Shown: positions 11,191 to 23,995, counted from the first letter of the stretch. The stretch is 29,113 bases of DNA from Gammaproteobacteria bacterium (GCA_050049835.1 JASFVM010000001.1:1-29113), one strand, 5' to 3'. Notes: generated by a model from the letters alone, not told the origin. Program-made: numbers and translations.

Positions 11191-11838
11191 ATGTCTTCAA
11201 TCGTATGGCTCGAAGATAACGATTACGAATTTCCACCGGTTGCACAGGCACTCTCTGATCCGGATGGCTTGCTGGCGGCCGGCGGTTCGCTGTCACCCGA
11301 GATCCTGCTGAAAGCATATCGGCACGGTATCTTTCCCTGGTATTCCGAAGGCCAGCCTGTCCTGTGGTGGTCACCCGACCCGCGTTTCGTGCTGTTTCCA
11401 GAAAAACTGAAGATTTCGCGCAGCCTGAAAAAAACACTCAACAAAAAAGTGTTTGGCATCAGGCAGGATACGGCTTTTCGCGAAGTCATGCTCAACTGCG
11501 CCAAACCGCGCAAGGATGATGCCGGCACCTGGATTACACACAACATGCTCGAAGCCTACTGCCGGATGCACGAACTAGGCTATGCGCATTCGATCGAATG
11601 CTGGCATGATGATGAGCTTGTCGGCGGTCTCTATGGAATTGCGCTTGGCGAAATGTTTTTCGGCGAATCCATGTTCAGCAAACAAAACGATGCATCCAAA
11701 GTTGCGCTCGTGTATTTATGCAATAACGTGAAACCAAAACTCATCGATGTACAGGTCTATTCCAGTCATATGGAACGGATGGGTGCGGAAATGATACCGC
11801 GTGCGCGATTTATAGAATACCTGAACAGGTATCTGTGA
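11191..11838 (+). CDS. aat: Leucyl/phenylalanyl-tRNA-protein transferase
   Basis: GLLAAGG.L, AY..GIFPW, WWSPDPR, LVGGLYG, FFGESMFS, ASKVAL. Confidence 0.96.
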   Translation: MSSIVWLEDNDYEFPPVAQALSDPDGLLAAGGSLSPEILLKAYRHGIFPWYSEGQPVLWWSPDPRFVLFPEKLKISRSLKKTLNKKVFGIRQDTAFREVMLNCAKPRKDDAGTWITHNMLEAYCRMHELGYAHSIECWHDDELVGGLYGIALGEMFFGESMFSKQNDASKVALVYLCNNVKPKLIDVQVYSSHMERMGAEMIPRARFIEYLNRYL

Positions 11839-11850
11839 CCTGGTTTTTAT

Positions 11851-12119
11851 TTCACCACAGAGGCACAGAGGGCACAGAGACTTTTGTTGTTTTCTACAGG
11901 AGCGACATCAGTCGCGAGCTATAGCAGTTAGCTTTTTCAGCCAATCATTTCACTTCGTGGACAAAATGATGAAGGCTAAATACACCTATAGATATCATTC
12001 GCGACTGATGTCGCTCCTACGAAATAAACAGTAACAACCTGTGTGTCTGGTACGCTCAAAAGGATTTATGTTTACAACATAGAATATTTTCTCTGTGTTC
12101 TCTGTGCCTCTGTGGTGAA
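11851..12119. repeat. Nested inverted-repeat element, copy 1 (outer CACAGAG arms, inner REP-like arms)
   Basis: Outer arms 11851-11880 / 12090-12119 (28/30 match). Inner arms 11899-11917 / 11999-12017 are a perfect 19-bp inverted repeat, GGAGCGACATCAGTCGCGA. Confidence 0.9.
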
Positions 12120-12148
12120 AAAAAAGGGTTATAACCATAAGTGGCATT

Positions 12149-12168
12149 CCCTGTGCCCCTGTGGTGAA
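12149..12168. repeat. Extra degenerate outer arm
   Basis: CCCTGTGCCCCTGTGGTGAA versus CTCTGTGCCTCTGTGGTGAA at 12100-12119 (18/20). Confidence 0.75.
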
Positions 12169-12262
12169 CCATCAGCATCGCACTATGAGCAGCTGCAAAT
12201 CAGGGTGAAGGAAGCCGATCCTGCTGGTATAGTGGCTGCAAGTCGATAACAAAACTGAAAGC

Positions 12263-13693
12263 ATGCAACAGGAAAATACCTACGAACTGGTCTCGGCACT
12301 GTTTATCAAGCTGCTGGCCCTGGTCTATTTTATCGCCTTTGCCTCCCTTTCCAGCCAGATCGTGGCTCTTGCCGGCCAGGATGGCATCCTGCCACTCACG
12401 CATCTGCTCGAAAACGCCACCACCGAATTCGGCTGGAAACGCTATCTTGCCTTTCCGACAGTTTTCTGGATTAACGCCGGAGACACCGCATTAACCGCGG
12501 CAACATGGCTGGGATGCGCTTTTTCGGTTCTGCTTCTACTCAACTATAAAACACGGTTCTCTCTGATAGCCCTGTATCTGCTCTATCTCTCGCTATACCA
12601 CGCCGGCCAGACCTTCATGAATTTCCAGTGGGATTACCTGCTGATAGAGGCAGGTTTTCTCGCGATTTTCCTGACGCCGAATTCACGCATCATCATTTTC
12701 CTGTTCCGCTGGTTATTATTCAGACTCAGATTCATGTCAGGGTTATCAAAGATACTCAGCAACGACCCCGGCTGGGCGGGACTGTCTGCACTGACTTTCT
12801 ACTTTGAAACACAGCCGCTTCCGCATGTTGGTGCCTGGTATGCACATCAGTTGCCTGAATGGATACTGATTCTTGCGACGGCTGCGACATTGTTTATTGA
12901 ACTCGTTGTCCCGTTCATGATGTTCATGGCGCGCAGATATCGTTTTATTGCCGCCTGGTTAACCCTGCTGCTGCAAGTGCTGATCATACTCACCAGCAAC
13001 CACAACTGGTTCAACATATTGACCATCATACTCTGCCTGTTCCTGTTTGATGATAAAGCGATCGCCCGCGTTATACCAGACCGGCTGTGCAACTGGTTGC
13101 TGCAACAGAAACAGGTTACCAGCATACCGGCTTATTCCAGGCCTGTCTCGTACGTGTTTGCTGCGATAATCCTGGTAACCAGCAGTGTTCAATTATGGGA
13201 AATGGCCTCGGGTAGCAGGATCAGGGGCAACGCGGGGCATGTTCTTGACTACATCGAACGCTGGTCACTGGCAAACAACTATCATGTTTTTCCAACAGTT
13301 AACCAGCAACGCGTTGAATTGATTATCGAGGGTACCGCGGACGGCCATACCTGGCTGCCATATTCTTTCAAATATAAACCGGGAGCACTTAATAAACCGC
13401 TTTATGTTGTTATTCCACATCAGCCCCGCCTGGACTGGATGGTATGGTTTGTGCCCCTTCATCCTGTTTTTACCGACTGGTTTGAAAACTTCCTTGATGC
13501 CCTGCTGGATAATTCACCGAGCGTTATCGCCATGCTCGAGCATAATCCCTTCCCTGCGGCACCACCGGTCGCAATCAGGGTACGGGCTTATGAATACAAA
13601 TTTACTGATATCGATGAACATAATACGACCGGCAACTGGTGGAAGCGCCACTACCTCGGGCCATTTGAACCCTTACCGGTGGTATATCGATAA
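12263..13693 (+). CDS. Lipase maturation factor (LMF) family membrane protein
   Basis: FQWDYLLIEAGFLAIFL, FRLRFMSGLSK, FETQPLP, N.NWFN.LT, PHQPRLDW motifs; multiple TM helices. Confidence 0.9.
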   Translation: MQQENTYELVSALFIKLLALVYFIAFASLSSQIVALAGQDGILPLTHLLENATTEFGWKRYLAFPTVFWINAGDTALTAATWLGCAFSVLLLLNYKTRFSLIALYLLYLSLYHAGQTFMNFQWDYLLIEAGFLAIFLTPNSRIIIFLFRWLLFRLRFMSGLSKILSNDPGWAGLSALTFYFETQPLPHVGAWYAHQLPEWILILATAATLFIELVVPFMMFMARRYRFIAAWLTLLLQVLIILTSNHNWFNILTIILCLFLFDDKAIARVIPDRLCNWLLQQKQVTSIPAYSRPVSYVFAAIILVTSSVQLWEMASGSRIRGNAGHVLDYIERWSLANNYHVFPTVNQQRVELIIEGTADGHTWLPYSFKYKPGALNKPLYVVIPHQPRLDWMVWFVPLHPVFTDWFENFLDALLDNSPSVIAMLEHNPFPAAPPVAIRVRAYEYKFTDIDEHNTTGNWWKRHYLGPFEPLPVVYR

Positions 13694-23782: not shown

Positions 23783-23995
23783 TTCACCACAGAGGCACAG
23801 AGGTTTATTACTGTTTATTTCGAAGGAGCGAATGTAGTCGCGAATTAAATAGATAAGGATTTCTTGGCTTTATTTACAGTGAAATATAATGACTGAAACC
23901 GCCAGGATTGTAACCACTAGCAATTTAAGTTCGCGACTAAATCGTTCCAACAGAAAACAACAAAATACTCTGTGTCTCTGTGCCTCTGTGGTGAA
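23783..23995. repeat. Nested inverted-repeat element, copy 2 (opposite orientation to copy 1)
   Basis: Outer arms 23783-23802 / 23976-23995 (20-bp perfect); inner REP-like arms about 23825-23843 / 23931-23948; linkers identical to copy 1. Confidence 0.9.

Follow-up and report, generated by a model that had tools for sequence, protein, structure and literature searches.

A multi-layer palindrome between aat and an LMF1-family gene belongs to a cross-phylum repeat family that also frames GxxExxY nuclease genes

What is the long nested palindrome that follows aat in this gammaproteobacterial genome, and by what route did its repeats come to lie inside one another? The window, the whole stretch of 29,113 nt that was analysed here, is contig C188 of the source assembly G000, a MAG of 2.66 Mb in 363 contigs that is 83% complete. 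The sequencing runs containing the element are wetland metagenomes, and the same element recurs in further metagenome contigs from this strain. A sequence-only reading of the window had proposed a composite non-autonomous mobile element or, as an alternative, a structured RNA of approximately 270 nt, and had suggested repeated addition of arms. The element starts 12 nt past the aat stop codon, and a TATAGT box (within ctggtatagt) that is common to congeners lies between the element and the LMF1 gene. The ctggtatagt sequence, just 5′ of the LMF1 gene (window 12170-12262, loci L138-L146), is kept in most congeners and resembles a -10 box; upstream of it, other congeners have a TTTACATTTGGG motif that is absent from G000, where the extra arm sits.

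Sequence inspection and a repeat search showed that 11851-12168 forms a single long imperfect palindrome (Table 1). The two 30-bp outer arms differ from each other at two bases only, GG in one and AA in the other, exactly as had been claimed, and when their flanks are included the inverted repeat grows to 36 nt at 92% complementarity; the CACAGAG words within them are spaced 8-10 nt. The inner inverted repeat is perfect over 19 bp (11898-11916 and 12000-12018), each of its arms being a GCGAC-ATCA-GTCGC hairpin, which bears out the GCGAC-N4-GTCGC design described earlier. The GTAG tag is also where it had been placed, on the right REP unit alone when read on the minus strand, and the left unit has ACAG instead; the right unit has 3 mismatches to the family consensus and 5/5 stem pairs. 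The inner palindrome extends into the core with 45-nt arms that are 73% complementary. The core thus folds back on itself as proposed, but between the inner arms we counted 83 nt rather than 81 nt. A genome-wide search found no further copy of the core. When 11845-12175 was folded as RNA, one long hairpin was obtained (-147.5 kcal/mol, z -13.9), and the DNA fold of the same segment gave -82.7 kcal/mol (z -13.5).

Table 1. Features of the aat-LMF1 element, its neighbouring genes and the second composite in the window.
Feature	Coordinates	Strand	Basis
aat (leucyl/phenylalanyl-tRNA protein transferase), upstream gene	11191..11838	+	Pfam PF03588, E 2.3e-72; ORF
Left outer arm: head TTCACC and three phased CACAGAG words	11851..11880	+	sequence, repeat search
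Left linker, T-rich; 14/14 match to copy 2; part of the copied composite	11881..11897	+	alignment
Left REP unit, GCGAC-ATCA-GTCGC hairpin without GTAG tag	11898..11918	+	sequence
Core between REP units, imperfectly palindromic; apex of the whole hairpin near 11958	11919..11997	.	repeat search, fold
Right REP unit with GTAG tag, reads GTAGGAGCGAC... on the minus strand	11998..12020	-	REP family scan
Right linker; 15/15 match to copy 2	12020..12035	+	alignment
Putative decayed arm, where copy 2 has an intact arm	12036..12053	-	alignment and sequence; inferred
Spacer from decayed arm to intact right arm; like the A/T-rich tail beside other arms (C151, C159, C167)	12054..12089	.	
Right outer arm, partner of 11851-11880	12090..12119	-	repeat search
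Outer stack unit: spacer with ATAAGTGGCATT and extra arm (12147-12168), no left partner	12120..12168	-	direct repeat
LMF1-family membrane protein gene, downstream	12263..13693	+	Pfam PF06762 and PF25179
Second, inverted composite (copy 2): arms, both linkers, REP doublet, diverged core; between two convergent gene stops (site 2)	23783..23995	-	

The outer arm is not itself palindromic: it consists of a head and three direct words and pairs solely with a distant partner arm. In the wider group, called the word-arm family here, two or three phased 7-nt words stand behind a fixed head, and the arms are inverted. In G000, 104 copies of the arm 20-mer (up to 3 mismatches) were found in 47 loci, most of them paired in inverted orientation at distances of 70-450 nt and enclosing interiors that are unrelated. 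A generic word-arm detector that includes sibling words (CGCAGAG, CGCAAAG and others) gave 463 matches compared to 53 in the shuffled genome; once overlaps were merged these were 296 arms, 223 of them outside long ORFs. The exact arm 20-mer was found in at least 120 stretches of a species-level genome collection, where about 1 would be expected by chance. These stretches include Acidobacteriota, Planctomycetota, Chloroflexota, Cyanobacteria, Gemmatimonadota, Nitrospirota, Verrucomicrobiota and Proteobacteria as well as one archaeal (Methanotrichaceae) bin, and many of the matches are on megabase contigs. Across phyla, the similarity sets in sharply at TTCACC, runs through the words and then ends, with unrelated flanks, and a partner arm often follows 60-200 nt further on. 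A search of the full-text-searchable literature with the arm and its variants returned nothing relevant, only unrelated primers.

The abundance of the arms differs strongly between related species. Counting two 16-mer arm types on both strands, we found from 0 to 83 copies of the CACAGAG type and from 2 to 183 copies of the CGCAGAG type among the congeners. G000 has 19 CGCAGAG and 64 CACAGAG copies; the corresponding numbers are 171 and 21 in G007, 183 and 17 in G003, 118 and 2 in G010, 42 and 0 in G006, and 84 and 83 in G009. Such unequal counts argue for lineage-specific amplification.

The sequence-only reading had recommended a search for GxxExxY genes between the same arms, and this search was productive. 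All three PF13366/TIGR04256 genes of G000 (GxxExxY, PD-(D/E)XK) lie between inverted word arms of the same grammar; these arms are of the CGCAGAG/CGCGGAG and CGCAAAG types, and the exact CACAGAG type frames none of them. Twelve GxxExxY matches were found in five relatives. Word arms frame all 10 of those with both flanks visible, and the remaining 2 are cut by contig ends and have an arm on one side; CACAGAG-type words frame two of the relatives' genes (G009:C94 and G011:C36). At the cross-phylum loci, an HMM of GxxExxY proteins detected a gene at most 172 nt from the exact arm in 3 of 120, which belong to Gemmataceae, Phycisphaerales and Chthoniobacterales. The 127-aa GxxExxY protein retains the G-x-x-E-x-x-Y and D...E-x-K motifs. 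In an orthologous cassette (G000:C187, G003:C186 and G009:C277) the words differ by species, CGCAGAG versus CGCAAAG, and the change affects both arms and all three words at once. The gene at G000:C187:6375-6722 has an in-frame TGA within the GxxExxY motif region with its arms intact, and is probably a broken copy. Another cassette, at G000:C65:8623-8973 (L124), is intact and lies directly 5′ of a trpG-like gene (anthranilate synthase component II, assigned by eye). The third gene, G000:C148:7275-7616, is intact as well.

The ORF-bearing intervening sequences of 23S rRNA carry a small ORF within a long inverted-repeat stem, and the gene-bearing word-arm members resemble them in this respect. 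In contrast, the element studied here lies outside rRNA and is gene-less, and a search of the genome for the four-helix-bundle IVS protein (PF05635), another gene that the sequence-only reading had suggested looking for, found none. As for the GxxExxY protein, PF13366 occurs in prokaryotes and viruses, and its function is given as 'unknown' both by Pfam and by a survey of the PD-(D/E)XK superfamily (PMC3424549). A PDB sequence search returned no solved relative, and in the literature searched for GxxExxY, PF13366 and TIGR04256 we found no paper on repeats and no biochemistry.

GxxExxY genes are the only genes regularly found between the arms in G000 and its relatives, and therefore a nuclease acting in trans is the most likely mechanism. 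We propose that the element is a gene-less, multi-layer word-arm copy and that a GxxExxY nuclease likely acts on its arms, a reading to which we assign a probability of about 0.55. Since the arms are shared across phyla and frame a small nuclease gene, the palindrome behind aat would be a copy, lacking the gene, of a probably selfish DNA element that appears to be undescribed. The nuclease, supplied in trans, would recognise or cut the arms in the form of an extruded hairpin, a cruciform or a single strand, and repair or recombination between near-identical arms would copy, nest, flip or delete the content of the loop; it is in this way that we infer new copies and new layers to arise. Several observations speak against this reading: the exact CACAGAG type frames none of the three nuclease genes of G000, one of which is probably broken; the element is the same in other samples of the strain; and both copies are so old that other species have orthologues of them. 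In a broader version, which we regard as unlikely, word-arm hairpins as the GxxExxY substrate could be pan-bacterial, selfish or partly domesticated 'hairpin cassettes', with the near-identical arms as portable recombination or cleavage sites. Loop content (a nuclease gene, a REP doublet or an arm pair) could then be taken up, nested or inverted, and could be copied from locus to locus; on this view, the Russian-doll element is a cassette with a foreign repeat as its cargo.

In logic, the closest parallels for such an arrangement are REP/REPIN with RAYT (see below) and Ssn, GIY-YIG nucleases that are framed by NTS/SRM repeats (Chenal et al. 2025, PMC11893778). Ssn and the word-arm family both combine a small nuclease gene, a hairpin-forming repeat on both sides of it and hundreds of gene-less copies in several phyla (PMC11893778). 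They differ in the enzyme, GIY-YIG in Ssn and PF13366 PD-(D/E)XK here, and in the repeat, since the SRM is a single short hairpin and the repeat here is an array of words. If the link to the nuclease is true, a large family without a function gains a concrete candidate substrate, and one of the commonest intergenic repeats of environmental bacteria gains a candidate enzyme, as in REP/RAYT and NTS/Ssn. Only the outer family appears to be undescribed: in the literature searched we found neither the word architecture nor the identity across phyla nor the association with PF13366. The earlier suggestion of a candidate undescribed system thus appears to hold for the outer family; it does not hold for the REP dimers in palindromes, for which there is a published precedent (PMC3733652).

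How are the layers arranged? In clusters, neighbouring arms were in the order '+-' 68 times, '++' 23 times, '--' 13 times and '-+' once. The ratio of 68 '+-' to 1 '-+' indicates that arms are arranged concentrically around one apex and that side-by-side hairpins almost never occur. Stacks of up to five arms were found, with a period of about 54 nt (C217, C167, C336). This nesting rule, together with the REP cargo in the loop, bears on how mosaic repeat clusters of the BIME-like kind are built. BIMEs of enterobacteria are mosaics of REP units and fixed linkers, and the element resembles them in that repeats of several types alternate in orientation, linkers recur and the location is a 3′ UTR. 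The likeness seen here is one of layout; the motifs appear to be different, and the layers are concentric around one apex whereas BIMEs are tandem.

The second composite in the window (Table 1) was used to examine whether the layers form a unit. When copy 2 is reverse-complemented, copy 1 can be aligned to it over the arm, the linkers, both REPs and a portion of the core; past the right linker, copy 1 is longer by about 60 nt. The composite-specific linkers occur in the two window copies only and nowhere else in the assembly. Linkers common to both copies imply that the composite was copied as a unit, and the earlier view of a composite element is upheld. That view had also presupposed that outer and inner repeats are not distributed independently of each other. 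This is so for the two window copies with their shared linkers, but the outer family is mostly independent of the REPs, only about 6 of its 47 loci holding one.

The alignment also bears on the addition of arms. Copy 2 has an intact arm right after the same linker that precedes 12036-12053 in copy 1, and for this reason 12036-12053 is plausibly a decayed arm, close to the position (about 12038-12053) at which one had been suspected. Of the right arms of copy 1, the innermost has decayed most; replacement of arms, or their addition on the outside, accounts for this better than a series of simple insertions into the loop. At the outer end, the previously noticed extra arm (12147-12168) repeats 12098-12119 in direct orientation with 91% identity, and its spacer is common to the stack at C261 (C261:3839-3894). 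The element is therefore layered, in line with the proposed repeated addition of arms.

We next compared both sites in congeners, species whose genes are about 80% identical. The aat-LMF1 spacer, compared in ten congeners, is empty in G006 (88 nt, no repeat) and is about 207 nt long without arms in G010; in G008 it holds about 1.2 kb of other genes and no arms. Other spacers hold different repeats at the same place: CGCAGAG-type arms and a GTAG REP doublet in G007; CGCAAAG-type arms, a different GTAG doublet and a porin-like gene in G001; CGCAGAG arms with a non-REP interior and a porin-like gene in G003 and G004; CACAGAG arms around CGCAAAG arms in G009; and a hairpin of GTGAAWAG words in G005. 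The last of these (G005:C1:2769150-2769660, L146) is made of a quite different word in the same design. The porin-like gene, identified by eye, encodes about 385 aa on the opposite strand in G003, G004 and G001 (L138, L139, L140) and is absent from G000.

Site 2 is empty in G006, G001 and G002, with 9-36 nt between the convergent stops. G003 and G007 carry CACAGAG arms there, together with a GTAG doublet and linkers that can be recognised as orthologous, and G009, G005, G004 and G010 have other nested repeats. In G004 (G004:C62:10690-11140, L185) the end of the upstream gene runs into a tandem heptamer array of GGGACTA/GGGAACT, and the right-hand hairpin arm alone is left. The presence of orthologous composites in congeners shows that both copies predate the split of these species, and both sites are old insertions into very tight gene junctions. 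The element is non-autonomous, and its composite has been copied as a unit at least once and has since been inherited vertically. The orthologous arms agree with the dominant variant of each genome at site 1 (CACAGAG in G000; CGCAGAG in G007, G003 and G004) and disagree with it at site 2, where G003 and G007 have CACAGAG arms though CGCAGAG dominates. The sequence-only reading had called for empty sites and target duplications in relatives. Empty sites exist, in G006 at aat-LMF1 and in G006, G001 and G002 at site 2, but comparison of site 2 with its empty counterparts revealed no target duplication. As another candidate for an empty site, 'joints' in the DNA run were considered and rejected; on one side they have no more than 21-23 nt, and they come from other copies. 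Orthologous sites that are empty, simple, nested or swapped provide a natural series for the order of insertion.

The inner units fit the GTAG type of REP, an imperfect palindromic stem-loop with a GTAG tag, the tag being present on the right unit only. They are palindromes in the 20-40-nt range of REPs, but they lack the high copy number of extragenic REPs, as only 17 units of this GTAGGAGCG family were found in the 83%-complete assembly (up to 6 mismatches, with the stem). The window pair is an inverted doublet with a REPIN-like layout, perfect over 19 bp and 83 nt apart, and there are eight doublets genome-wide. Seven of the eight lie inside word arms of several word types: CACAGAG arms at C60, C229, C266 and both window copies, CGCAAAG arms at C201 and CGCAAAT-type arms at C219; the doublet at C74 has an arm on one side only. 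Of all units, 10/17 have a '+' arm before them and a '-' arm after them at no more than 250 nt, compared to 2.3% of random non-ORF positions. In a second REP family (GTAGCCCGG...), the same is true of 11/37 units. These proportions may be too high if repeats simply gather in permissive spacers, an effect that accounts less readily for the strict nesting.

REP dimers nested within longer palindromes were reported for the GTAG superfamily by Di Nocera et al. 2013 (PMC3733652), and nesting as such is therefore not new. This precedent raises the alternative that two independent systems are stacked here: a REPIN moved by a RAYT-type tyrosine transposase with a preference for single-stranded hairpin loops would repeatedly have landed in the apices of word arms, with no role for the outer arms in its spread. 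The reported cases in Anabaena, Thermomicrobium and Halothiobacillus (PMC3733652) agree with this, as do the GTAG tags and inverted doublets of the inner units, the occurrence of the same REP family within arms of four different word types, and the presence in G000 of a Y1-transposase-like gene and a pseudogene. We nevertheless consider it unlikely. The Y1-like gene runs into a contig end, which removes its upstream flank; with the RAYT model it reaches 47.8 bits, the cut-off being 80, and the flank that is visible has no REP. The genome has no more than the 17 REP units, and doublets sharing a core were never found with different arms around them; related pairs share both arms and linkers. 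In addition, neither GTAG REPs nor paired word arms flank any of the 11 Y1 genes of five congeners whose flanks were inspected, and no RAYT flanked by these REPs was found in G000 or among these genes; RAYT genes had been among those that the sequence-only reading suggested looking for. At least 7 of the 11 lie between GGGGTCAGA-type inverted repeats (TIRs), in the same layout as the published 'TIRtrons' (Di Nocera et al., PMC3733652). Across the genus, GGGGTCAGA-type inverted repeats enclose many Y1 (IS200-like) genes, with short tandem repeat copies on one side (L161-L180).

The word-arm family itself shares several properties with the REP/REPIN-RAYT systems ('REPtrons'): the inner units are 20-25-nt GTAG hairpins in an inverted doublet downstream of a gene, and many gene-less hairpin repeats coexist with few copies that frame an enzyme gene. 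It differs from them in that the outer arm is not a palindrome and has three direct 7-nt words behind a fixed head, that the framed gene encodes a PD-(D/E)XK nuclease and not a Y1 HUH transposase, and that no RAYT flanked by the inner REP was found in G000 or five congeners. Moreover, the outer palindrome is abundant without REPs; in Anabaena and Halothiobacillus, by contrast, no target palindrome was found apart from REPs (PMC3733652).

A role at the level of RNA was also considered. A 280-nt metatranscriptome contig spans 11691-11970 without a difference, from the 3′ end of aat to the hairpin apex, and because of this contig the element is probably read through from, or co-transcribed with, aat; the contig has a depth of 3.8, and DNA carry-over in the RNA library is possible. 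The stem might then be an exapted 3′-UTR hairpin that ends, insulates or stabilises the aat transcript before the LMF1 promoter, the repeat families being raw material only. Besides this RNA-library contig, the position of the element, which begins 12 nt beyond aat and stops short of the conserved TATAGT box, is as expected for such a hairpin, and 7/10 congeners have a hairpin of some family at the same spot, with quite different words. REPs are commonly downstream of genes and are considered to act as RNA elements (PMC3733652). In spite of this we judge the RNA reading quite unlikely. The U-run of an intrinsic terminator is absent: on the aat strand, eight A come after the right arm, and TTTTTAT stands before the left arm. 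G006 and G010 have no hairpin at aat-LMF1, and across phyla the arm is conserved as sequence and not as structure. An Rfam scan of 11600-12400 (E up to 1) matched no family, giving only plant miRNA-precursor models at 20-28 bits versus thresholds of 55-130. Partner arms of the CACAGAG subfamily were no closer to each other than non-partners (8.4 versus 9.2 mismatches in 32 nt, p = 0.11), so there is no sign of selection for pairing as such. Selection for arm pairing, which we had considered as an argument, was accordingly dropped, since partner-arm covariation was not significant. The structured RNA of the sequence-only reading is hence left with its fold only.

Highly improbable is a classical MITE, derived by deletion from a DDE-type insertion sequence and mobilised via its terminal inverted repeats in a cut-and-paste manner: the element does have terminal inverted repeats, small size, many copies and intergenic positions, but its arms are arrays of direct words with tandem stacks (period about 54 nt) and concentric nesting, the copies that carry a gene encode a 127-aa PD-(D/E)XK nuclease and not a transposase, and there is no consistent target-site duplication. 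Specifically, 3/23 elements had a flanking direct repeat of at least 3 nt compared to 4% in mismatched pairs, the flanks being A/T-rich, which does not amount to a duplication of fixed length; an outward-palindrome test on the elements gave no consistent signal. Correia/NEMIS MITEs are likewise short, gene-less elements with inverted ends and many copies at gene junctions. They differ from the element here in that its word-arm ends are common across phyla, no consistent target duplication accompanies it and no DDE transposase partner was found among the gene-bearing copies.

The arms also have practical consequences. Short-read contigs of DNA run X1 end exactly at the arms (pieces 11407-11879, 11851-12117 and 12092-13275), and three congener assemblies are split at the element at site 2. 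These breaks indicate that word-arm repeats are a systematic cause of MAG fragmentation. The arms thus break short-read assemblies, and they can in addition supply stop codons at gene ends. At G000:C336:3849-4606, a small CcoS-like ORF (cbb3-oxidase maturation, assigned by eye) lies between stacked arms, and its TGA stop is formed by the first three bases of an arm head (TGAACC for TTCACC), which shows that arms can supply or overlap stop codons. At G000:C278:112-500, three tandem units of about 119 nt were found, each with a CACAGAG arm, a CGCAAAT-type arm and a GTAGCCCGG REP, so that each unit is a mosaic of three repeat families that have been amplified together.
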